Below are positions 2,584 through 14,972 of a DNA stretch of 64,000 nt, in pieces. Under the pieces are notes generated by a model. It ran no database searches. It worked only from the letters and a program-made list of their open reading frames with translations, and had not been told where the DNA came from. The DNA is taken from assembly GCA_963796955.1 (NCBI GenBank), contig CAWCNJ010000003.1, positions 64,001 through 128,000 of the forward strand. The letters run 5' to 3'. Position 1 is the stretch's first letter; the number at the start of each line of letters is the position of its first letter. The stretch comes from Endomicrobiales bacterium. Its GTDB lineage: Bacteria; Elusimicrobiota; Endomicrobiia; Endomicrobiales; JALOBY01. The position numbers were made by a program, and so were the translations under genes.

Positions 2584-2612
2584 TTGACTTTAGACGAGGG
2601 ATTAGGTAGAAT
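2584..2612 (+). promoter_or_regulatory. sigma70-type promoter of the pst operon
   Basis: TTGACT-17 bp-TAGAAT about 30 bp upstream of pstS. Confidence 0.6.
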
Positions 2613-2642: not shown

Positions 2643-3467
2643 ATGAATATAAAGTATATATATATAGCTTCTATTCTTGTGCTTCTAACCTCCTGCGCCC
2701 GCAGGGAGGCTGTTGTGGTTGCCGGTTCTACCGCTTTCCAACCTTTTGCCGAAGAGATCGCCGAAGAGTATATGCAGAAATATCCCCAGCTTAACATTAC
2801 CGTTCAGGGCGGGGGATCTTCCGTTGGTATTCAATCGGCTCTTAACGGGGTTGCCCAGATCGGTATGGCCGACCTGGTGACCCTGCCGCCGGCTGCATCA
2901 TCACTGGTTAAGCATGTCGCTGCCAACGATGGTGTTGTCATGGTAGTAAATCCTGTCAACCCGGTCTCCAATATCACCACCGAACAGATCCGTCAACTAT
3001 ATCTAGGTAAGATTAATAACTGGAAAGAGCTGGGTGGCATAGATAAACAAATAACCGTTATCTCTCGCGAAGCCGGCTCAGGCACGCGCTCTTCTTTTGA
3101 AGACCTTGTGTTTAAGGGCGGTACCCTGCGCCAGGATGCCATTATAGGAGATTCGAACGGGACCGTGCGCGAGCAGGTGGCAAATGACCCTAACGCCATC
3201 GGGTATATCTCAAACGGTAACGTTAACGATAAAGTTAAGCCGCTTACCCTTGAAGGGATCGCCTGCAGCGTAGGAGCTATTACCTGCGGAAATTACAAGC
3301 TCGTAAGGCCCATCTACCTGCTTACCTTAAGCACGGTGAGCATTCAGACCCAACAATTCCTTGATTATATCCTCGGCCCCGAGGGCCAGAAGACCATACA
3401 TGCCGAGGGCTTGATACCGGCGCACCTTTACGATACCAATGAACCAAAACAAAATAAAAAGAATTAA
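2643..3467 (+). CDS. pstS: phosphate ABC transporter substrate-binding lipoprotein
   Basis: lipobox LTSC; AGSTAF, QGGGSSVGI and REAGSGTR motifs. Confidence 0.92.
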   Translation: MNIKYIYIASILVLLTSCARREAVVVAGSTAFQPFAEEIAEEYMQKYPQLNITVQGGGSSVGIQSALNGVAQIGMADLVTLPPAASSLVKHVAANDGVVMVVNPVNPVSNITTEQIRQLYLGKINNWKELGGIDKQITVISREAGSGTRSSFEDLVFKGGTLRQDAIIGDSNGTVREQVANDPNAIGYISNGNVNDKVKPLTLEGIACSVGAITCGNYKLVRPIYLLTLSTVSIQTQQFLDYILGPEGQKTIHAEGLIPAHLYDTNEPKQNKKN

Positions 3468-4299
3468 AGAAGTCATCATAGAAAAAGCGCTGCTCTTGAT
3501 CGCCTGTTCGGCGGTGGGCATACTGCTGCTTATCGCTATTTTTATTTTTCGCGAAGGCACGCCGGTAATATTTAAATACGGCCTGAAAAATTTCGTGGGC
3601 GTAAACAACTGGTCGCCGCTCAAGGGCCACTTCGGCATTCTGGCCATGATACTCGGCTCTATCTGGGTAACTCTCGGCTCGCTTGTTATCGGGGTGCCTC
3701 TCGGCCTTGGGTGCGCGATATTCCTTACCGAGTTCGTACCGTCAAAAGTGCGCCTGATCCTTAAGCCTACCATAGAATTGCTTGCCGGCATTCCTTCCGT
3801 TGTCTTCGGTTTTATAGGCGTGATAATACTGGTGCCGTTCATACGCAATACTTTCGGCGGGCCGGGCCTGTCAGTGGCGGCGGCATCCATTGTTCTTGCG
3901 ATAATGATACTGCCCACCATAATAAGTATCTCGATAGACGCCATACTTGCAGTACCTAAAACCTACCGTGAAGGCTCGCTCGCTCTTGGCGCTACACGGT
4001 GGCAGACTATCACAGGAGTTGTCCTGATAGCGGCAAGGTCGGGAATAGTCGCAAGCGTTATTCTGGGCATGGGCCGGGCGATAGGCGAGACGATGGCCGT
4101 TATAATGGTTGCGGGAAATACCGTGCAGTCGCCGCATTCGTTACTGGCGCCCGTTCGCACGTTAACAGCGAATATTGCCCTGGAAATGGGTTTCGCAACG
4201 GGTGATCACCGCTCGGCTCTGTTTGCGACAGGTGTTGTATTGTTCATGTTCGTTATGACGTTGAACATCATCGCCAGCAAGGCGGTAAAACGCAAATGA
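3439..4299 (+). CDS. pstC: phosphate ABC transporter permease PstC
   Basis: ELLAGIPSVVFG, EGSLALGATRWQT, GRAIGETMAV. Confidence 0.93.
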   Translation: MNQNKIKRIKEVIIEKALLLIACSAVGILLLIAIFIFREGTPVIFKYGLKNFVGVNNWSPLKGHFGILAMILGSIWVTLGSLVIGVPLGLGCAIFLTEFVPSKVRLILKPTIELLAGIPSVVFGFIGVIILVPFIRNTFGGPGLSVAAASIVLAIMILPTIISISIDAILAVPKTYREGSLALGATRWQTITGVVLIAARSGIVASVILGMGRAIGETMAVIMVAGNTVQSPHSLLAPVRTLTANIALEMGFATGDHRSALFATGVVLFMFVMTLNIIASKAVKRK

Positions 4300-5195
4300 C
4301 CTCTTCGACCCCTTCGATCACTTCGACAAGCTCAGGGTCAATACCTTCCGGGCGCATGATATCGCCGAAGCTGGCTCAAAATATAATGCGGGTGGTGCTG
4401 GGTCTTGCTACGGCGTTGACGGTATCGATCCTTGTTTTTATTATCTTTTTTGTGTTGATCAAGGGGTTGCCTGTTGTAAACTGGAAATTCCTTACCGACT
4501 TCCCGCATAAGATGGGTAAAGCCGGCGGCATATTCCCGACCATAGTCGGCACTTTTGTGCTGACAACGCTGGCGATCGTTTTTGCGACCCCATTGGGGGT
4601 AGGTGCGGCCATATACCTTACAGAGTACACAAAGGAAAATACCTTCACGCGGATCATCAGGTTCGGCGCGGAGTGCCTTGCCGGTATACCGTCAATTATT
4701 TTCGGTCTTTTTGGTTTTATACTTTTTGTCGTCTATCTGCAAATGGGCTGGAGCATCTTGTCGGGCAGCCTGACGCTGGCTTTTATGGTGCTGCCCACGA
4801 TCATGCGCACCGCTGAAGAGGCTATAAAAACAGTTCCATATTCCTACCGCGAGGTCAGCCAGTCTCTGGGAGCAACCCGCTGGGAAACAGTCCGTTACGC
4901 GGTTCTGCCCGATGCCCTGCCCGGAATAGCTACCGGCATTATCCTTGCGATGGGGCGGGCTATCGGAGAAACAGCGGCAGTAATATTTACTGCCGGCTCG
5001 TCAATGCGGCTGCCTACCTCCATGTTCGATTCCGTGCGCACCATGTCCGTGCATTTTTATATACTCTCGCGCGAAGGCGTGTCCATGAAGAACGCCTACG
5101 GTACGGCGCTGGTGCTGGTGGTCTCTATTCTGGCGGTTAATATGGCGGCCTACTGGCTGATGCAGAGATTTGTAAGCAAACATAAGAAAAAATGA
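4296..5195 (+). CDS. pstA: phosphate ABC transporter permease PstA (alternative start ATG 4356)
   Basis: GGIFPTIVGT, LAGIPSIIFGLFG, GRAIGETAA. Confidence 0.93.
   Translation: MTSSTPSITSTSSGSIPSGRMISPKLAQNIMRVVLGLATALTVSILVFIIFFVLIKGLPVVNWKFLTDFPHKMGKAGGIFPTIVGTFVLTTLAIVFATPLGVGAAIYLTEYTKENTFTRIIRFGAECLAGIPSIIFGLFGFILFVVYLQMGWSILSGSLTLAFMVLPTIMRTAEEAIKTVPYSYREVSQSLGATRWETVRYAVLPDALPGIATGIILAMGRAIGETAAVIFTAGSSMRLPTSMFDSVRTMSVHFYILSREGVSMKNAYGTALVLVVSILAVNMAAYWLMQRFVSKHKKK
4303..4340. repeat. three 9-bp-period CTTCGA units ending in CTTCGACAAGCTCAGGG (REP-like remnant)
   Basis: cttcgaccc cttcgatca cttcgacaa gctcaggg at the pstC/pstA junction. Confidence 0.5.
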
Positions 5196-5950
5196 ATAAA
5201 ATACAAATAAAAAACTTTAATCTCTCTTTCGACGGCAGGCCGTCGCTTATCAACATTAATCTTGATGTGGAAGAGCGTAAGATATTGGGCATTATCGGAC
5301 CCGCGGGCAGCGGCAAAAGCACGATCCTGCGCTGTATAAACCGCCTTGTCGATCTGGAACAAACCGCCAGGGTCGCCACTACGGGTGATATTCAGATAGA
5401 CGGACAGAGCATATACGCCCGCAATACGGACGTCGTCGCGCTGCGCCGCCGCGCCGGCATTATCTTCGCGCTGCCGTCGCCCTTACCGCTTTCCATCTAT
5501 GACAATATCTGCTACGGTCCCCGCCGTAACGGGATCACTAATAAAAATAAACTTGATGAGATAGTTGAAAGGACGCTTACAGAAGCCTCATTATGGAACG
5601 AAGTCAAAAACCGGCTTAACCTTATGGGGCCCAGCCTTTCCGGCGGACAGCAGCAGCGTCTATGTATCGCCAGAACCCTGGCCCTTGAGCCCGAAATAGT
5701 TATGATGGACGAACCCTGCTCGGGACTGGACCCCATCTCAACCGCCAAGATCGAAGAATCGATGGTAGAATTGAAAGCGAAATATACGTTCATCATTGTT
5801 ACTAATAACACCAAGCAGGCCGCCCGCGTAAGCGACAATGTCGCGTTTTTCCTTATGGGCGAGTGCATTGAACACGGTAATTCGTCTCAGATCTTCACCG
5901 TGCCGAAAGATCAGCGCACCAACGACTATGTATCGGGAAGGTTCGGTTAA
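5192..5950 (+). CDS. pstB: phosphate ABC transporter ATPase PstB1
   Basis: Walker A GPAGSGKS, signature LSGGQQQR, MMDEPCSGLDP, C-terminal YVSGRFG. Confidence 0.92.
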   Translation: MNKIQIKNFNLSFDGRPSLININLDVEERKILGIIGPAGSGKSTILRCINRLVDLEQTARVATTGDIQIDGQSIYARNTDVVALRRRAGIIFALPSPLPLSIYDNICYGPRRNGITNKNKLDEIVERTLTEASLWNEVKNRLNLMGPSLSGGQQQRLCIARTLALEPEIVMMDEPCSGLDPISTAKIEESMVELKAKYTFIIVTNNTKQAARVSDNVAFFLMGECIEHGNSSQIFTVPKDQRTNDYVSGRFG

Positions 5951-6711
5951 TGGAAGACAGGAATAAGATCGAAGTTGCAGACCTTTCGCTTTTTTACGCG
6001 CAGTTCCAGGCGCTGAAGAACGTGAACATATCATTTAAAGAACGTCACATCACTTCTTTGATAGGGCCCTCCGGCTGCGGCAAAAGCACGCTGCTGAGAT
6101 GCCTTAACCGTATGAACGACCTTATTGATACTTGCCGTGTTACCGGCGAGGTAAGACTGGATGGGAATAATATTTACGCGGCCGGCACAGACGTTGACCT
6201 GCTGCGCAGCCGGGTTGGTATGGTTTTTCAGCGGCCTAACCCCTTCCCGTTGTCCGTATTTGATAATGTCGCTTACGGTTTGAGAGTGCACGGTTTGTGC
6301 GACGCACGCACTGTTTCCGGGATAGTTGAAGAAAGTCTTAAGAGCGCCTGGCTTTGGAACGATTTGAAAGATAAACTGCAGAAAGACGCGACCACCCTGC
6401 CGCTGGATCAGCAGCAGCGCCTTTGTATCGCCAGGCTCATCGCTATTAAACCTGAAGTTATTTTAATGGACGAACCTTGTTCCGCATTAGACCCTATCTC
6501 TACCTCAAAAGTAGAAGAGCTGATGTTCGAACTGAAAAAAGATTTCACGATCGCTATAGTAACACATAACATGCAGCAGGCTGCCCGCGCTTCCGATTAT
6601 TGCGGCTTTATGCTGCTGGGCGATCTTCTGGAATTCAACCAGACCGACCTGATATTTACCAACCCCACTGATCAGCGCACACAGGATTATATTACCGGCC
6701 GCTTCGGATGA
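5950..6711 (+). CDS. pstB: phosphate ABC transporter ATPase PstB2
   Basis: GPSGCGKS, VFQRPNPFP, LMDEPCSALDP, VTHNMQQA, YITGRFG. Confidence 0.92.
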   Translation: MEDRNKIEVADLSLFYAQFQALKNVNISFKERHITSLIGPSGCGKSTLLRCLNRMNDLIDTCRVTGEVRLDGNNIYAAGTDVDLLRSRVGMVFQRPNPFPLSVFDNVAYGLRVHGLCDARTVSGIVEESLKSAWLWNDLKDKLQKDATTLPLDQQQRLCIARLIAIKPEVILMDEPCSALDPISTSKVEELMFELKKDFTIAIVTHNMQQAARASDYCGFMLLGDLLEFNQTDLIFTNPTDQRTQDYITGRFG

Positions 6712-7805
6712 AATTTAAACAAACGGTCAATTCGATCGATCCGGACTTTACCCTGTTGGCTGCCGTCGTGGGTCTGGTCTTTCTGGGAACGTTGATGGTC
6801 TTTTCTTCCAGCGTGATCATGGCCGATGTGCGCTGGCATTCGCCGTACTCGTTCTTTTTCAAGCAGCTGATGTGGGTCACCGTCGGTTCGGCGTTGATGG
6901 CTTTTTTTATCCGGTTCGATTACCGCTCCCTGCAAAAATACTCTAAACTTTTAACCGTGATCACCGTGGCGCTGCTGGGCCTGGTCTTGGTTGTGGGCAC
7001 GGTAAAACTCGGTGCGAAACGCTGGCTTAAGTTCGGGCCGTTCAACATGCAGCCGTCGGAGCTCGCGAAATACGTGCTGGTCATCGCCCTGGCCGATTAC
7101 ATAGACCGCAAAAAAAGCAAACTGAAAAAATGGGAAGGCATTTTACCCGGCCTGGCTATCATGGCCGCCTTCATAATCCCGATAGCCCTTGAGCCTGACC
7201 TCGGCACGCCGCTGATAATGTTCGCCGTCGCCATGAGCCTGCTGTTCGTAAGCGGCGCGAGCTTCGGCAAAATATCGACGCTGGCGTTTTCCGTGGTGCC
7301 GCTGATCGTGCTGGATATTTACCGTAAACCCTACCGCCTGGCGCGCATCAGGCATTTCTTCGAGTCCTGGGGCGATATCAGCAGCACCTCCTATCAGCTC
7401 AATCAGTCTATCCTGGCGCTCGGTTCAGGCGGGTTTTTTGGGAAGGGATTGGGCCAGGGACAAATGAAACTGCTATATCTGCCGGAAGCCCATACCGATT
7501 TTATCTTTCCTGTGATAGGCGAGGAATTAGGTTTCATCGGGGCTTCAGTTGTCATAGCCTTGTTCGTTATAATAGCCTGGCGGGGCTGGCGGGCCTGCCG
7601 CAACAGCAGCAGTTATTTCGGCTCTCTTGCAGCGCTTGGCATAACCTTGTTGATCACGTATCAGGCGATATTCAATATCAGCGTCTCTTGCGGCCTGGCG
7701 CCCACAAAAGGTCTCGCCCTGCCCTTTGTCTCATTCGGCGGCTCTTCTCTCTTGTTCAATATGGCGGCGGCCGGGATATTACTGAACATTTCAAGGCGGG
7801 GATAA
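6708..7805 (+). CDS. ftsW: SEDS peptidoglycan polymerase FtsW
   Basis: GAKRWL, QPSELAK, EPDLGT, YLPEAHTDFIF, LPFVSFGGSS; directly upstream of murG. Confidence 0.92.
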   Translation: MKFKQTVNSIDPDFTLLAAVVGLVFLGTLMVFSSSVIMADVRWHSPYSFFFKQLMWVTVGSALMAFFIRFDYRSLQKYSKLLTVITVALLGLVLVVGTVKLGAKRWLKFGPFNMQPSELAKYVLVIALADYIDRKKSKLKKWEGILPGLAIMAAFIIPIALEPDLGTPLIMFAVAMSLLFVSGASFGKISTLAFSVVPLIVLDIYRKPYRLARIRHFFESWGDISSTSYQLNQSILALGSGGFFGKGLGQGQMKLLYLPEAHTDFIFPVIGEELGFIGASVVIALFVIIAWRGWRACRNSSSYFGSLAALGITLLITYQAIFNISVSCGLAPTKGLALPFVSFGGSSLLFNMAAAGILLNISRRG

Positions 7806-8891
7806 ATGATAGACAACAAGACCATTATCATAGCGGCGGGTGGCACGGGGGGACATCTGTACCCCGGCATCGCCCTTGCCCGTGAGCTTAAACAGCGCGG
7901 CTATTCGCCGCAGTTCATAGTGCGTAACGGCGATGCCGGCATAGAAATTATTCAGCGCGAAGGGTTCCTGTTCCATCAGGTAGCGGCTATGGGAATGCCG
8001 CGGGCGTTTACTGTTAAGATATTTAAGTTTTTGTTATTGCAGATAAAGGCCGTCTTCCAGATGCTGTCTTTGTTCTCCCGGTTGAAGCCGGAGGTTGTTG
8101 TGGGTATGGGTGGTTACATTTCTTTTTCTTCGATCCTGGCCGCCCGGTTTAAGGGAATCAATACAATTATACATGAGCAAAACTCGATCCCGGGCCTTGC
8201 CAACCGCGTACTTTCCCATATAGCAGGTCAAGTAGCCGTCAGCTTTGAGCATTCTCTTGTGCATTTTCCGGCCGGCAAGACGGTAGTAACGGGTAACCCT
8301 GTTCGCGCCGAGTTGTTCCGCTCAGACCCCGATGAAGCTCTGAAACGCCTTGGCCTGGCGCAGGGGAAATTCACGGTACTGATATTCGGTGGAAGCCAGG
8401 GCGCGGCTAAAGTTAACCAGGCGGCCGTAGATGCCTATGGTTTGCTCGGCGATAAAAGGGATGCGGTACAATACCTGCATCTGAGTGGTGCTAAGGATTT
8501 TGAACGTGTCTCTGAAGAATTTATAAAGAAGAATGTCGCGGGTGTAGTGCTGCCCTACCTTCATTCTATCGGCGATGCTTACGCGGCCTGCGATCTTATC
8601 ATCTGCCGTGCCGGCGCGACCACTCTTGCTGAACTGAAGATATTGGGCAAACCCGCTATTTTAATTCCTTTTCCGCATGCTACCGCAAATCATCAGGAGT
8701 ATAACGCCCGTACTATGACCGACAGCGCGAAATGCGGTATGATAATAGAAAAGGATATGGAAGCACCCGGCCTTGCGGCCATGATGCTGAAATATATAAC
8801 CGATAGATCGTCCGGAGGCTCCTGCCCGTTGAACGTGCCGGCAGTGTTCGCCCAAAGCCGCCTGGCGGACCTGGTAACGAAAGGAAAATAA
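7806..8891 (+). CDS. murG: undecaprenyl-PP-MurNAc-pentapeptide GlcNAc transferase
   Basis: GGTGGHLYP, GMGGY, HEQNSIPGLAN, GNPVR, GGSQGA, HQEYNA. Confidence 0.95.
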   Translation: MIDNKTIIIAAGGTGGHLYPGIALARELKQRGYSPQFIVRNGDAGIEIIQREGFLFHQVAAMGMPRAFTVKIFKFLLLQIKAVFQMLSLFSRLKPEVVVGMGGYISFSSILAARFKGINTIIHEQNSIPGLANRVLSHIAGQVAVSFEHSLVHFPAGKTVVTGNPVRAELFRSDPDEALKRLGLAQGKFTVLIFGGSQGAAKVNQAAVDAYGLLGDKRDAVQYLHLSGAKDFERVSEEFIKKNVAGVVLPYLHSIGDAYAACDLIICRAGATTLAELKILGKPAILIPFPHATANHQEYNARTMTDSAKCGMIIEKDMEAPGLAAMMLKYITDRSSGGSCPLNVPAVFAQSRLADLVTKGK

Positions 8892-8893
8892 AA

Positions 8894-9265
8894 ATGTCAG
8901 GAAAGAGCTTTTCGATAAAAGGACGCCTTAATAGTTTTGCCTGCGCCTTTAACGGTATCTGGACCATGTTAAGGGAAGAACACAATGCCTGGCTTCACAC
9001 CGTCGCCACGATAGCGGTCGTGATCGCGGGTAGCGCGGTCCATGTCACACGGTATGAATGGTGCTGGCTGGTGCTTGCGATCACCGGGGTGTGGATGGCT
9101 GAAGCGCTTAACACCGCCCTTGAAGTGCTGGCTGATGTAGCCATGCCGGATATGCACCCAATGGTAGAGAAGGCGAAGGACGTCGCGGCCGGCGCCGTAC
9201 TGATAACCTCAATTGGAGCCTTTTCGATAGCAGTGTTGATCTTCATGCCGTATTTTATTAAATAA
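8894..9265 (+). CDS. dgkA: DgkA-family diacylglycerol/undecaprenol kinase
   Basis: SFACAFNGI, EEHNAWLH, EALNTALE, AKDVAAGAV. Confidence 0.88.
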   Translation: MSGKSFSIKGRLNSFACAFNGIWTMLREEHNAWLHTVATIAVVIAGSAVHVTRYEWCWLVLAITGVWMAEALNTALEVLADVAMPDMHPMVEKAKDVAAGAVLITSIGAFSIAVLIFMPYFIK

Positions 9266-9273
9266 GGGAAAAA

Positions 9274-10017
9274 ATGAAAAAAACGATTCTTGTCACTAAC
9301 GATGACGGCATATACGGCGCGGGGCTTGCCCCGCTGGTAAAAGAGCTGAGCAAGATCGCAAAAGTCTCGGTTGTCGTTCCGGATCAGGAGCGTTCCGGAA
9401 CTGGCCATAGCATAACTCTGCACAGCCCGCTCAGGATACATAAATTCAACGCCAACACGTACCTGGTGAACGGTACGCCCGCCGACTGCGTGCGCTACGG
9501 TTCCCGTAAGCTGTTGAAGGGAAAAGTAGACCTGGTGGTTTCAGGCGTGAATACGGGACCAAACCTCTCTCAGGATGTGGTCTATTCCGGCACCGTTGCA
9601 GGCGCCCGTGAAGCCGCGTTGCTAGGCATCCCTTCCTTTGCGGTTTCGGCGGCCCAGTGGGAAAAAGCCGATTTTAATTCCTGTGCGCGGGTCGCGGCCC
9701 GTATCGCGAAGATGCTGCTGGTCAACCGGCTGCCCCTCGACACATTTTTGAACGTGAATGTTCCTGTTAAAGCCAAAGGGTTTCGCGTTACTAAACTCGG
9801 CAAAAGAATATATGACGAAGAAGTCGAATGCCGTAACGATCCCACCGGCCGGGAATATTTCTGGCTCGCCGGTAAATTTATCTCCGGTGTCGAAGACCCG
9901 GGAACCGATATTGAGGCCGTCAATAAAGGCTATGTCTCCATAACCCCTCTCGATCTGAGCCCCACGGCTATTCACCTTATGGGAGAGATCAACACATGGC
10001 TGAAAGATTTAAAATAG
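9274..10017 (+). CDS. surE: 5'/3'-nucleotidase SurE
   Basis: ILVTNDDG, GTPADCV, VSGVNTGPN, YSGTVAGARE. Confidence 0.95.
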   Translation: MKKTILVTNDDGIYGAGLAPLVKELSKIAKVSVVVPDQERSGTGHSITLHSPLRIHKFNANTYLVNGTPADCVRYGSRKLLKGKVDLVVSGVNTGPNLSQDVVYSGTVAGAREAALLGIPSFAVSAAQWEKADFNSCARVAARIAKMLLVNRLPLDTFLNVNVPVKAKGFRVTKLGKRIYDEEVECRNDPTGREYFWLAGKFISGVEDPGTDIEAVNKGYVSITPLDLSPTAIHLMGEINTWLKDLK

Positions 10018-12041
10018 TATCTCAATTCAAGCCTTCCGGTGACCAGCCTGCTGCTGTTGAAGAACTGGCAAAGGGCATACAGGAAGGGGTTAAAGAGCAG
10101 GTCCTGCTCGGCGTGACCGGGTCCGGGAAAACCTTTGTCATAGCCAACCTTATTGAAAAAGTACAAAAACCCACGTTAATAATATCACCTAATAAGGTGC
10201 TCGCCGCCCAGCTTTACGCCGAGTTCAAGGCTTTCTTTCCGGACAACGCTGTAGAATTCTTCATATCCTATTACGATTACTACCAGCCCGAAGCTTACGT
10301 GCCTTCTTCCGATACATACATAGAAAAAGACGCCTCGATCAACGAACATATCGAAAAACTACGCTTGAAAGCGACCTCGGCTATACTCAGCCGCAAGGAT
10401 GTGATCATTGTCGCCTCAGTCTCGTGCATATATAACCTGGGCGGACCTGAGGACTATCAGAATTTCTGCATCTTTGTGCAAAAGGGCATGGGGAAGGGCC
10501 GCCAGACCCTGATAAAGGAATTAGTCAACAGCCATTACGAAAGGAATGATATGGAGTTCGTGCGCGGTAATTTTCGTGTGCGCGGCGATACGGTTGAGAT
10601 ATTCCCGGCTTACGGCGACCTGGGCCTTCGCGTAGAATTTTTCGGCGACGAAATTGAAAAAGTAAGCGAGTTTAACCCGATCGACGGCCATGTGCTGAAA
10701 GATAAGACCGCCGAATATATTTACCCCGCCAGCCATTTCGTGGTCAGCCAGGAGAAGATAAACATCGCTCTTGATGAAATAGAGCGCGAGCTTGTCGCAC
10801 GGGTGACGGAACTGAAAAGCGAGGGAAAACTGCTGGAAGCCCAGCGCTTGGACCAGCGCACACGCTACGATATGGAGATGATGCGTCTGACGGGTGTTTG
10901 CCCCGGCATTGAAAATTACTCCCGTATACTGGCCGACCGGGCACCCGGTTCACGGCCCGAATGTCTTATAGACTACTTCAACGCCGCTCTTTCCGGCAAC
11001 AAGAACGATTACATGATCATTATAGACGAATCGCACATAACGGTGCCGCAGATACGCGGCATGTACGCGGGGGACCGCGCCCGGAAAGAAACGCTGGTGA
11101 AATACGGCTTCCGTCTGCCGTCAGCACTTGATAACCGTCCGCTCAAATTCCCGGAATTTGAAAAGCTTTCCCCTCAGACCATTTACGCCTCCGCGACCCC
11201 TGGTCCGTATGAGCTGACCAAGACGGAAGGTGTTTTTACGGAACTGGTGATACGCCCGACCGGCCTTATAGACCCGGAGGTGCAGGTGCGACCCATAAAA
11301 GGCCAGATAGACGACCTGATAGTTGAGATCCGCGGCTGCGTCGCGAAAAAATACCGGGTGCTGGTAACCACGCTCACTAAAAGATTATCGGAAGATCTGA
11401 CCGAGTATCTAAAGGAAAAAGATCTGCGCGTTCAATACCTGCATTCCGAAATAGACGCCTTGTCGCGCATAGAAATACTTAAAAATCTGAGGCAGGGTAA
11501 ATTTGATGTGCTGGTAGGAATAAACCTGTTGCGCGAAGGACTGGACCTGCCGGAAGTGGGGCTTGTGGCTGTGCTTGACGCTGATAAGGAGGGTTTCCTT
11601 CGTTCAGAGACAACCCTTATCCAGATCTGCGGCCGCGCCGCCCGCAACGTTGACGGTAAAGTCATTCTCTATGCCGATGTAATGACCGGTTCAATGCAGC
11701 GGGCCCTTGGTGAAATGACCCGCCGCCGCATCAAGCAGATGGAATACAACAAAATAAATAACATAACGCCCAAATCCGTTGTAACAGCCGTCCACGACTT
11801 GCAGGAATTCGAGCACCACGCCAAGGAAGAAGGCCTGGTAGGCATGTTCCGCGAAACCGAAGGTGAATACATAGCCCCTAAACAAATGCACACTGTGATG
11901 AAGGAACTGGAAAACCAGATGAAACAGGCAGCCGACAACCTTGACTTTGAAACGGCTGCTATCTTTCGCGACCGCATTGTTCAGCTAAAAGAAATGTCTG
12001 CCCAGAAAATACCCCGCAAAGCTGTCCATTCCAAAAAATAA
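9996..12041 (+). CDS. uvrB: excinuclease ABC subunit B
   Basis: PSGDQP, GVTGSGKT, YYDYYQPEAY, DESH, GINLLREGLDLPEV, C-terminal UVR domain. Confidence 0.97.
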   Translation: MAERFKIVSQFKPSGDQPAAVEELAKGIQEGVKEQVLLGVTGSGKTFVIANLIEKVQKPTLIISPNKVLAAQLYAEFKAFFPDNAVEFFISYYDYYQPEAYVPSSDTYIEKDASINEHIEKLRLKATSAILSRKDVIIVASVSCIYNLGGPEDYQNFCIFVQKGMGKGRQTLIKELVNSHYERNDMEFVRGNFRVRGDTVEIFPAYGDLGLRVEFFGDEIEKVSEFNPIDGHVLKDKTAEYIYPASHFVVSQEKINIALDEIERELVARVTELKSEGKLLEAQRLDQRTRYDMEMMRLTGVCPGIENYSRILADRAPGSRPECLIDYFNAALSGNKNDYMIIIDESHITVPQIRGMYAGDRARKETLVKYGFRLPSALDNRPLKFPEFEKLSPQTIYASATPGPYELTKTEGVFTELVIRPTGLIDPEVQVRPIKGQIDDLIVEIRGCVAKKYRVLVTTLTKRLSEDLTEYLKEKDLRVQYLHSEIDALSRIEILKNLRQGKFDVLVGINLLREGLDLPEVGLVAVLDADKEGFLRSETTLIQICGRAARNVDGKVILYADVMTGSMQRALGEMTRRRIKQMEYNKINNITPKSVVTAVHDLQEFEHHAKEEGLVGMFRETEGEYIAPKQMHTVMKELENQMKQAADNLDFETAAIFRDRIVQLKEMSAQKIPRKAVHSKK

Positions 12042-12843: not shown

Positions 12844-13608
12844 CTTTTGGTATCGTTTATAATATCATAAACATACAAATCACACTCCTTTGGGGAAGCG
12901 ACAATTAAAACCAAAATGAAATCTAAACAGTGGCAAATACTTCTTCTGTCAATGTCTCTTTGCGGTATTGCGCACGCGAAGACTTTTGTGAGAGAATCCA
13001 CTTGGCAATGCTTGTCAATGTAGTATTTATAACGATGGGGTATTTGTGACGAATTCAGATTCATCAGGAAGGTACACAATAAACTATGTTGTCGTAGGTA
13101 CACACACCATCAGCGTTCCAAATTTATTTTCTGCACTTGTTACTGTGCATTCAGACAACCTTGAAACGCAGGATATTACATTGAATTGGATGCCTATGGG
13201 TTCGGACTTGTCTGTTACTGGATGGGACAGATTAACCGAAGCAAATAGTCCTTATGTGATAAGTAAAGATATGACATTATACAATTTGTTGATTGATCCC
13301 GGTGTTATAATTAAATTTTCCGGATCGTATGCATTTGAAGTTTGGAATGGTGGCGATATCTTTGTTAATGGAACCAACTCAAAACCAATCATATTTACAT
13401 CTGGAAGGCTATCTCCATTAGCGGCCCTATTTCTCAGCGATAGTGACCTCATCAGTGGCAGTTAATTCACTATTGAGCCTTTGTCTTTGACGTTGCCGTT
13501 GGCCGGTCAAAGACATTGGTTCAAGATGTGAAGAAGACGTGCCTCAAAGCCGTTGCCGTTTGTTCCGCGCGGCTAAAACTGAGTATAATGACCCAAAGGA
13601 GCCTATCA

Positions 13609-13935
13609 TTGGAAAATATCATAACTGCAAAAAAAGAACGCTTAAAGCTGACACCCGAACTGTTGTTCAACATCTACCTGGAATGCACCGCTCCCGGAGC
13701 GCCAGTAAAGTCAATTCTGGCTCGCCACGGCCTAAAACCCTGGGATCTGGTAGCAATCCGCAAGAAAGTCCGCGCTGGCGCCATAGAAGCCCTAGCAAAC
13801 GCCAAGCCGGGCAGAAGAAAGCACGTTGTGGCCGTCGAACAGTTCCAGCAGGTATCAAAGGAACTGGGCGAAACCAAGGATGCCCTGGCGGCAGTGGGGC
13901 ACGAGCTATCATTGCTAAAAAAAAGAGTGAATTAG
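13609..13935 (+). CDS. IS OrfA (HTH plus coiled-coil)
   Basis: AAGGAG RBS 7 nt before TTG 13609; TATAAT at 13584; HTH-like KSILARHGLKPWDL and C-terminal ELSLLKK. Confidence 0.75.
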   Translation: MENIITAKKERLKLTPELLFNIYLECTAPGAPVKSILARHGLKPWDLVAIRKKVRAGAIEALANAKPGRRKHVVAVEQFQQVSKELGETKDALAAVGHELSLLKKRVN

Positions 13936-14972
13936 CTCTTGAAGGCCCGCTGCTGGGTCATTTTACAAAAGAGGTCAAAGAACAAGTGGTAAATATTATC
14001 AAAGAAGCGGTCAATTCCGGCTTAACCCAGAATCAAGCCTGCATTACTTTCGGCCTTGCGGCCAGAAAGTTCCGCAGGTGGGCTAAGCCTAAGCCCGTTA
14101 AACAGCGTTCCGCCTGGAACAAAACGCTTAAACATGAATGTGAAGCAATTGAAGCCGCTGTCTATGAGCCGGAACTTATCGGCAAGCCGTTAAGCCATGT
14201 CTTCGTACACGGCCACAGAACAGGCAAATTCTTCGTTTCGCTGGCCACCGTTTTCCGCGTACTTAAAAGCAAAGACCTTGTTAAACCGCTGAGCTTTTAC
14301 AGATCACGTAAAACAAATTACGTTCCTGCTCAGGCGCTGATGGCCGACGGTTATTCGCTTCTTTGCTATGACGGCACGCAGTTCGTTACAGTGTTTGGCA
14401 CTATCGTTTGGGCCATACCGGTCTTGATTCTTCCGGCACGCTATCTGCTTCATGTCGGCTATTGTATCGGCGGTGTTACATCAGCCAATCTTACAAACGC
14501 CGTTAAAGAAGCTCTTGCGTTGCTGCCGGAACATCTTATGACTAACCTCATTGCCCATTCGGACAGAGGCTCTGCCATGAAGGCCGTCAAAACCCAGAAG
14601 ATTATCAAAGAGCTGCTTGGCGCTGATGTTCACTACGGACGCCCAAACACCCCTGACGATGAGGCCTGGATTGAGTCGCTTATCAATTCCCTGAAACATC
14701 ACAGGGATGCGCCGGTTTCCTTCGAGCAGGTTGATGACGTCGTTCAGTGGATCAGCAGCTTTCCACAAATCCACAACAACGATCCACACAGCGCCCACAA
14801 GTACGTTACACCGCTTGAAGTCCTGTCCGGACAAAAGGAGGTTATCTTAAATCAGAGAAAGAACAATTTGACCGTAGCGCGCCTTTTGCGCTATACTGCG
14901 TGGAAAGCTGCTTCCGGAAAAGTCGCCAAAACATTGGCTCTTCCGGCCTCAGCAGTAGAAGTTGGTTGCTGA
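13917..14972 (+). CDS. IS OrfB DDE transposase, expressed as OrfAB through a -1 frameshift at A8G 13917-13925
   Basis: CYDGT...AHSDRGS...PDDEAWIES..K integrase-core (rve) motif; frame is -1 relative to orfA. Confidence 0.85.
   Translation, partial: KKKSELALEGPLLGHFTKEVKEQVVNIIKEAVNSGLTQNQACITFGLAARKFRRWAKPKPVKQRSAWNKTLKHECEAIEAAVYEPELIGKPLSHVFVHGHRTGKFFVSLATVFRVLKSKDLVKPLSFYRSRKTNYVPAQALMADGYSLLCYDGTQFVTVFGTIVWAIPVLILPARYLLHVGYCIGGVTSANLTNAVKEALALLPEHLMTNLIAHSDRGSAMKAVKTQKIIKELLGADVHYGRPNTPDDEAWIESLINSLKHHRDAPVSFEQVDDVVQWISSFPQIHNNDPHSAHKYVTPLEVLSGQKEVILNQRKNNLTVARLLRYTAWKAASGKVAKTLALPASAVEVGC

Follow-up and report, generated by a model that had tools for sequence, protein, structure and literature searches.

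Paired, asymmetric PstB ATPases in a predicted phosphate importer of uncultured bacteria

The window analysed here is a 64,000-nucleotide stretch of an Endomicrobiales genome (contig CAWCNJ010000003.1 of assembly GCA_963796955.1, positions 64,001 to 128,000 of the forward strand). It contains a tightly overlapping operon, pstS-pstC-pstA-pstB1-pstB2, whose last two genes encode two different PstB-type ATPases (B1 and B2). Neither B1 nor B2 carries all the motifs, and the canonical arrangement of one PstB forming a homodimer with two consensus ATP sites was not found. Because all conserved changes fall in just one of the two ATP pockets, this Pst importer probably operates with an obligate B1–B2 heterodimer and a single catalytic ATP site. 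Sequence comparison points to a real, conserved Pst subfamily of single origin, which resembles asymmetric ATP-binding cassette (ABC) transporters, lies outside the exporter families and has a motor other than the canonical PstB homodimer.

Motifs, conservation and origin of the PstB pair

PstB was the best-scoring family for both proteins (TIGR00972), with B2 passing the cut-off and B1 falling below it. The motifs of B1 read, in order, GPAGSGKS, IFALPSPLP, LSGGQQQR, MMDE, SGLD and VTNNTKQ, and those of B2 read GPSGCGKS, VFQRP, LPLDQQQR, LMDE, SALD and VTHNMQQ. In the alignment to E. coli PstB (PDB 9k3x), Ala93 of B1 aligned with the Q-loop Gln and Asn205 with His210, whereas B2 was consensus throughout except for its signature, LPLDQ. 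These motif changes had been noted in the original prediction and were confirmed in the translations of the open reading frames (ORFs), their positions being fixed by the alignment.

5192..5950, + strand: pstB1, 252 aa; TIGR00972 333.9 bits, under the cut-off of 343.2
5297..5320, + strand: B1 Walker A GPAGSGKS; Lys invariant, fourth position relaxed in relatives
5468..5470, + strand: B1 Q-loop Ala93 replacing Gln; Ala in 119/119 aligned homologues
5636..5650, + strand: B1 LSGGQ signature, intact, consensus site; SGGQ in 100% of 166 B1 sequences
5708..5713, + strand: B1 Walker B Asp-Glu, kept; 100% of 166 B1 sequences
5804..5806, + strand: B1 H-switch Asn205 replacing His; 66/66 loci selected on B2
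5950..6711, + strand: pstB2, 253 aa, start overlapping the B1 stop; TIGR00972 371.6 bits, above the cut-off of 343.2
6397..6411, + strand: B2 degenerate signature LPLDQ; family variants LSLEQ, LTLEQ, LSGEQ, LPLDQ and others, acidic fourth residue in 68/71

Each ABC site consists of the Walker A/B, Q- and H-loops of one nucleotide-binding domain (NBD) and the signature of the other (PMC7756269; PMC12976172). In a B1–B2 dimer, B2 would give its intact Walker A/B, Q-loop Gln and His, and B1 its intact LSGGQ signature and D-loop, to a site A that is wholly consensus. The altered Walker/Q/H face of B1 and the altered signature of B2 would meet in site B, which holds every deviation: Gln to Ala, His to Asn, the relaxed P-loop Gly, and a signature in which Gly-Gly gives way to a bulky and an acidic residue. 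Two different NBDs with their deviations on one composite site were thus found, and the sequence comparison bears out the original proposal that all defects fall in one site of a heterodimer while the other stays consensus.

At the fourth residue of Walker A, B1 relatives had Asn in 67%, Gly in 16%, Arg in 7% and Lys in 5%, whereas Gly occupied it in 99–100% of B2 and canonical PstB; B1 of the window retains Gly. As judged from these alignments, the relaxed position is a further deviation in the same site as the Q-loop and H-switch changes. Among 150 pairs, the residue at this position of B1 (position 39) was associated with the partner signature: Lys, Arg or His with LTEEQ, LTGEQ, LTDEQ or LSGEQ, Asn with LSLEQ or LTLEQ, and Gly with LPLDQ. 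This association may reflect cross-site compensation or simply common ancestry.

The substitutions were conserved far beyond the window. Among the best 120 protein matches to B1, 119 had both Ala and Asn, plus the invariant Lys, Asp-Glu and SGGQ; the remaining one, P0005, a partly duplicated canonical PstB, was excluded from the alignment. Co-occurrence was then examined in both directions. A GTDB scan for the B1 H-loop gave at least 120 loci, 80 of them with flanks. SGG was missing from the signature of all 71 readable downstream PstB proteins; 15 signature variants occurred, and the fourth residue was acidic (Asp or Glu) in 68. Of the 71 partners, 67 had Lys, Gln, Asp-Glu and His intact, and four were truncated or frameshifted. 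Seven of the 80 loci had no readable partner and two had no PstB ORF at the match. In reverse, a metagenome scan for B2-type signatures yielded 80 loci with flanks. His was replaced by Asn in all 66 readable upstream PstB proteins, and Gln was present in none of the 62 readable Q-loops (Ala in 57); 13 loci lacked a readable adjacent upstream PstB, among them the outlier L258 described below, and one was not recovered. The original prediction had staked itself on the B1 changes co-occurring with loss of the B2 signature, which held in both directions and in the genome-level census below.

Selection on the pair is suggested by two patterns. First, synonymous codons vary freely at the fixed positions, the four Ala codons and the two Asn codons all occurring across 165 B1 genes. 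Second, neither chain shows any variation at the residues of the consensus site, whereas the B2 signature (15 variants, none of them SGG) and the B1 P-loop position vary. From these sequences, the Ala and Asn substitutions are judged not to be chance or assembly error.

In phylogenetic trees, B1 and B2 each formed one clade even with the motif columns removed (Shimodaira–Hasegawa-like approximate likelihood ratio test 99 each), indicating that the pairing arose once, long ago, and has been maintained by selection rather than arising repeatedly. The two trees were mirrored, and their distances correlated with r = 0.75 (41 pairs). One outlier operon (L258:1011-1775 and 4712-5593, − strand) was arranged B2-pstS-C-A-B1. 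In the B1-clade member of this operon, His is kept, Walker A Lys is changed to Ile, the Q-loop has Asp and Walker B Glu is changed to Arg, next to a partner with the signature LSPEQ (single locus); by sequence, the same site looks to be disabled here by another route.

The asymmetric pair is common to many uncultured bacteria. At least 118 true GTDB loci were found under 18 phylum labels (22 loci unassigned), mainly Omnitrophota, Planctomycetota, Elusimicrobiota and Aminicenantota, and the record titles seen were metagenome-derived. Since the score of the B1 hidden Markov model (HMM) did not separate B1 from canonical PstB, prevalence was determined with a DNA pattern for B1 (recall 64/66). 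By this pattern, B1 was present in 50/131 sampled genomes of the Omnitrophota-labelled phylum and in 42/101 genomes of the window's phylum, where one family had it in 31/31 genomes and another in 0/32. In the genome census of the order (41 genomes), 18 had B1, B2 and canonical PstB, 16 had B1 and B2 only, six had canonical PstB only, and one (60% complete) had none. No genome of the 41 had only one of B1 and B2, even where rearrangement had separated the genes. Such parted pairs, both genes retained, were seen at L181-L185, L194 and L196 (several genomes of family f10). Where the genes are adjacent, the pstB2 start lies within −10 to +25 nt of the pstB1 stop in 99/115 pairs. A search of the ESM Atlas returned generic PstB clusters only.

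Predicted mechanism and alternatives

Evidence for phosphate as the substrate came from the permeases and from genome content. The Arg and its Glu partner that coordinate inorganic phosphate (Pi) in PstC and PstA of E. coli (PMC12976172) were conserved at 99% and 100% in PstC (143 family members), and likewise at 99% and 100% in PstA (150 family members). Five reduced genomes from a single genus (G010, G020, G026, G034 and G040; 95–99% complete) had the asymmetric Pst as their only Pst, and neither Pit nor a Na/Pi cotransporter was found in them. In G010 and G020, its two permeases were the sole PF00528 matches in the genome.

In the mechanism that we propose, site A would drive the cycle and site B would serve as a hinge. 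Site B could still bind nucleotide, given that the A-loop aromatic residue, Lys, Asp and Glu are kept, and would be unable to close on or split the gamma-phosphate; the stoichiometry would then probably be one ATP per Pi. Both signatures would be broken in a B2 homodimer, and in E. coli PstB one signature change, Q160K, abolishes Pi transport (PMC5775613). The original expectation that both homodimers are crippled therefore fares well for B2. It is less sure for B1, with its universal Lys and Asp-Glu and a His-to-Asn change of the kind that MRP1 tolerates (PMC7756269).

Structure prediction of B1 and B2 with two ATP and two Mg gave a score of 0.57 versus 0.01 for the best control. This supports the dimer weakly, and similarity to the PstB dimer of known structure is the probable reason for the pass. 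Among solved pairs 116/157 attained the pass mark, and among mismatched pairs 2/215; at 0.60 or below it was attained by only 18 solved pairs and by both mismatched ones. The runs agreed in at least 97% of contacts, and the partner predicted local distance difference test score was at least 87. Two natural B1–B2 fusions (P0121 and P0127) were considered as proof of the dimer and rejected, being single-contig proteins whose garbled B1 C-terminus marks them as frameshift artefacts.

Several points weigh against a one-site importer. The B1 Lys and catalytic Glu were present in 100% of 166 sequences, Glu being lost only in L258, whereas dead sites are usually recognized by the absence of that Glu. 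Transport by MRP1 stays wild-type-like after His to Asn in its NBS2 (PMC7756269), and MalK requires two working sites, although HisP does not (PMC3971661). Judged from the trees, the co-occurrence counts reflect one origin retained over time, not independent events. Moreover, the five genomes with the asymmetric Pst as the only importer are all kin and carry organophosphate:Pi antiporter-like genes (below the family cut-off).

As a variant of the heterodimer, site B could be a non-hydrolytic sensor in which the acidic signature residue of B2 replaces the gamma-phosphate; it would read the ADP/ATP ratio or cytoplasmic phosphate and throttle uptake or set the PhoU-PhoR signal. If true, this reading would describe a type I importer that naturally uses one ATP and carries its own feedback, and it would account for the fixation of Ala, Asn, Lys and Glu, which do not drift. 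We regard it as conceivable but rather doubtful.

Alternatively, the heterodimer may be real and site B slow rather than dead, with two ATP split per cycle at unequal rates. The invariant Walker residues of B1, the tolerance of MRP1 and the requirement of MalK for both sites would all fit. However, three or four defects, including loss of both signature glycines, lie in one site, a less drastic signature change is enough to kill E. coli PstB (PMC5775613), and in the basal lineage L258 (a single locus) B1 has lost both Lys and Glu beside an intact-looking operon. A slow second site thus seems unlikely to us.

The complex could also serve chiefly to sense phosphate for PhoU/PhoR, with a bias toward the open 'phosphate-sufficient' state and little transport. 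An E. coli PstB signature mutant signals sufficiency without transport (PMC5775613), and phoU follows pstB2 in 96/132 relative loci with enough flank, with phoB/phoR often nearby; it also travels with pstB2 in 5/6 loci where B1 and B2 are separated. In addition, canonical Pst coexists in 18 of the 34 genomes with the pair. Such a role is very improbable, considering that one site is fully consensus, the Pi-binding residues of the permeases are kept, 16 genomes have no other PstB, and the copy in the window has no adjacent phoU.

The suggestion that B1 and B2 are exchangeable accessory subunits, acting as homodimers or paired with canonical PstB, draws on Enterococcus, where genetics of E. faecalis showed that excess PstB2 replaces PstB1 (PMC12096839), and on the weak computational support for direct B1–B2 binding. 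It appears scarcely credible, because the motifs are intact in both E. faecalis proteins (PMC12096839) and in three other Firmicute pairs, 16 genomes have no canonical PstB to pair with, and none has B1 or B2 alone. Finally, the pair might be a duplicated pstB in neutral decay or the product of sequencing errors, as apparent frameshifts elsewhere in the assembly could suggest. This was refuted by the same substitutions fixed across 18 phylum labels, by free synonymous variation and by the intact frames of both genes, leaving it practically no probability.

Operon, regulation and neighbouring genes

The PstS, PstC and PstA family matches sit in one operon with the PstB pair. PstC and PstA are separate type I importer permeases, and no exporter transmembrane fold is fused to an NBD. 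The top PDB matches of PstS were the phosphate-binding proteins 4q8r, 4gd5 and 4exl, and the PstA coupling helix, REVSxSLG, is typical of the family. The upstream features and the canonical operon of the same genome are as follows.

2584..2612, + strand: sigma70-like site upstream of pstS, 10/12 match; one such site expected by chance
2643..3467, + strand: pstS, phosphate-binding lipoprotein; TIGR02136 203.6 bits, slightly (3 bits) below the cut-off of 206.6
3439..4299, + strand: pstC, permease with Arg213/Glu217 retained (E. coli R237/E241; alignment to 9k3s_B); TIGR02138 above cut-off
4296..5195, + strand: pstA, permease with Arg221/Glu225 retained (E. coli R220/E224; alignment to 9k3s_A); TIGR00974 above cut-off
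G000:C3:23766-31866, outside the window: canonical pst operon with phoB, phoR, porin, pstS, pstC, pstA, pstB, phoU

The canonical single-pstB operon lies ~38 kb away. Its porin, pstS and pstC look frameshifted, which may be due to assembly indels because gyrB on contig C5 is also split. A tandem TTAACA repeat with 11-bp spacing was found de novo in the set of canonical operons and resembles the Bacillus Pho box. It occurred before 12/13 porin-led canonical operons, the set from which it was derived, and a perfect copy lies at C3:26279, before the canonical operon of this genome. In contrast, it was not found in C3:58000-72000, around the window operon, and it occurred at 2/10 asymmetric operons in the order (one by script, L205 by inspection). 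With the repeat absent here and present before the canonical operon, the asymmetric operon may be the housekeeping copy in this genome, as in others where it coexists with a canonical Pho-boxed pst operon, and Pho-regulated in other lineages. The housekeeping part is weakened in two ways: the motif comes from the canonical set itself, and the repeat was present at 21/73 asymmetric operons outside the order, against a shuffle mean of 1.5, indicating that housekeeping expression is not general. There is a precedent in pneumococcus, where a constitutive Pst2 stands beside an inducible Pst1 (PMC4913102).

An E. coli-type Pho-box consensus did not discriminate the operon types and was dropped, whereas the TTAACA repeat did separate them. 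The genome has only two perfect tandem TTAACA copies; the other belongs to a triple TTAACA-like repeat with 11-bp spacing directly upstream of dnaN (G000:C5:136998-137025).

Replacement of Pit by the asymmetric Pst was also rejected as a general rule. In the order, a PF01384 (Pit) match was found in 6/6 genomes without the pair versus 2/34 with it, whereas another phylum showed no or a reversed trend (131 genomes; 31/50 with the pair versus 35/81 without).

Downstream, phoU does not adjoin the window operon. The pstB2 stop overlaps the start of ftsW (checked by HMM), and the run continues through 6708-12041 with murG, diacylglycerol-kinase-like, surE-like and uvrB genes, named by eye from the ORF list. 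Upstream, a PTS IIA gene and a 650-aa N-terminal half of KdpD without the kinase domain occupy 90-2531. A short way before the window come kdpE, kdpA, kdpB and the other half of KdpD, which bears the kinase domain, so that a split KdpD stands beside PTS IIA. These genes close a kdp cluster, were at none of the mapped relative loci, and were therefore rejected as Pst partners. At 13516-14972, two overlapping ORFs in different frames resemble, by eye, an insertion-sequence transposase pair.

Comparison with known systems

Type I importers are modelled as symmetric two-ATP motors, and mutant studies conflict, a single site being enough in HisP but not in MalK. The B1/B2 family appears to be a natural one-site phosphate importer, which makes it possible to test directly how many ATP are spent per substrate, and whether PhoU/PhoR learn the phosphate status from the conformation of the PstB dimer, as one model holds. 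Annotation hides the pair, because both genes are simply named pstB. No degenerate PstB pair was found described in the open-access literature searched, although subscription papers and supplements could hold a mention. The original claim of novelty for a Pst importer is consistent with this, but degenerate sites are already known in importers, in the fused sugar and nucleoside ATPases RbsA and NupO (PMC11466899). Those proteins differ in having two NBDs in one polypeptide, a second Walker A without Lys, and another substrate and transporter family.

A near counterpart in organization is E. coli PstSCAB (PDB 9k3x, 9k3y, 9k3s; PMC12976172), which shares the order pstS-C-A-B(-phoU), the type I permeases, the Pi Arg/Glu pairs and ~50% identity of the ATPase with B1 and B2. 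It uses a PstB homodimer, whereas here there are two PstB chains with one of two composite sites consensus, and both coupling helices carry family-typical changes.

Firmicutes also have two adjacent, non-equivalent pstB genes, as in E. faecalis (PMC12096839) and pneumococcal Pst2 (PMC4913102); the 2025 study of E. faecalis states that no earlier work had addressed tandem pstB paralogues (PMC12096839). Unlike B1 and B2, both E. faecalis copies have all four motifs (PMC12096839), and the tandem pairs of Latilactobacillus, Listeria and Niallia, with all motifs intact, did not group with B1 or B2. Retention of Walker A/B, LSGGQ and His in both paralogues, typical of Firmicute pairs, was not seen in B1/B2. 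Common descent with these pairs found no backing in the tree, which showed no supported grouping of B1 or B2 with either Firmicute paralogue (backbone unresolved, bootstrap not converged). In the Streptococcus tandem pair, the second PstB, which falls with the other Firmicute copies in clades separate from B1/B2, shows only an H-switch change, His to Arg (VTRS), in 116/120 matches (four not parsed), with both signatures intact (P0241-P0360, e.g. P0258; P0122, P0125). Its nesting among intact Firmicute paralogues suggests that this PstB has separately taken a partial step toward an asymmetric pair; the available part of PMC4913102 does not mention the change.

Among exporters, consensus and degenerate sites are common (exporters and channels such as TM287/288, TAP1/2, CFTR, MRP1; PMC7756269, PMC3971661), and they share with B1/B2 the confinement of deviations to one composite site with altered H-loop and signature. 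Here, however, the system is an importer with a binding protein, and its NBDs are free-standing genes. Yeast Pdr5 has the dead-site signature LNVEQ, with a bulky third and an acidic fourth residue as in LSLEQ, LTLEQ and LPLDQ, and that site stays ATP-bound and barely closes (PMC8421411). Pdr5 is an unrelated eukaryotic exporter, and in its dead site the Walker A Lys and the Walker B Glu are missing as well. The resemblance is taken as convergent and as a lead only. The exporter-like layout that had been predicted thus stands for the gathering of deviations in one site and fails for the catalytic Glu, kept here unlike in TAP, CFTR and TM287/288. With Glu kept, Gln and His lost and the signature acidic, the degenerate-site chemistry of B1/B2 differs from the exporter pattern.

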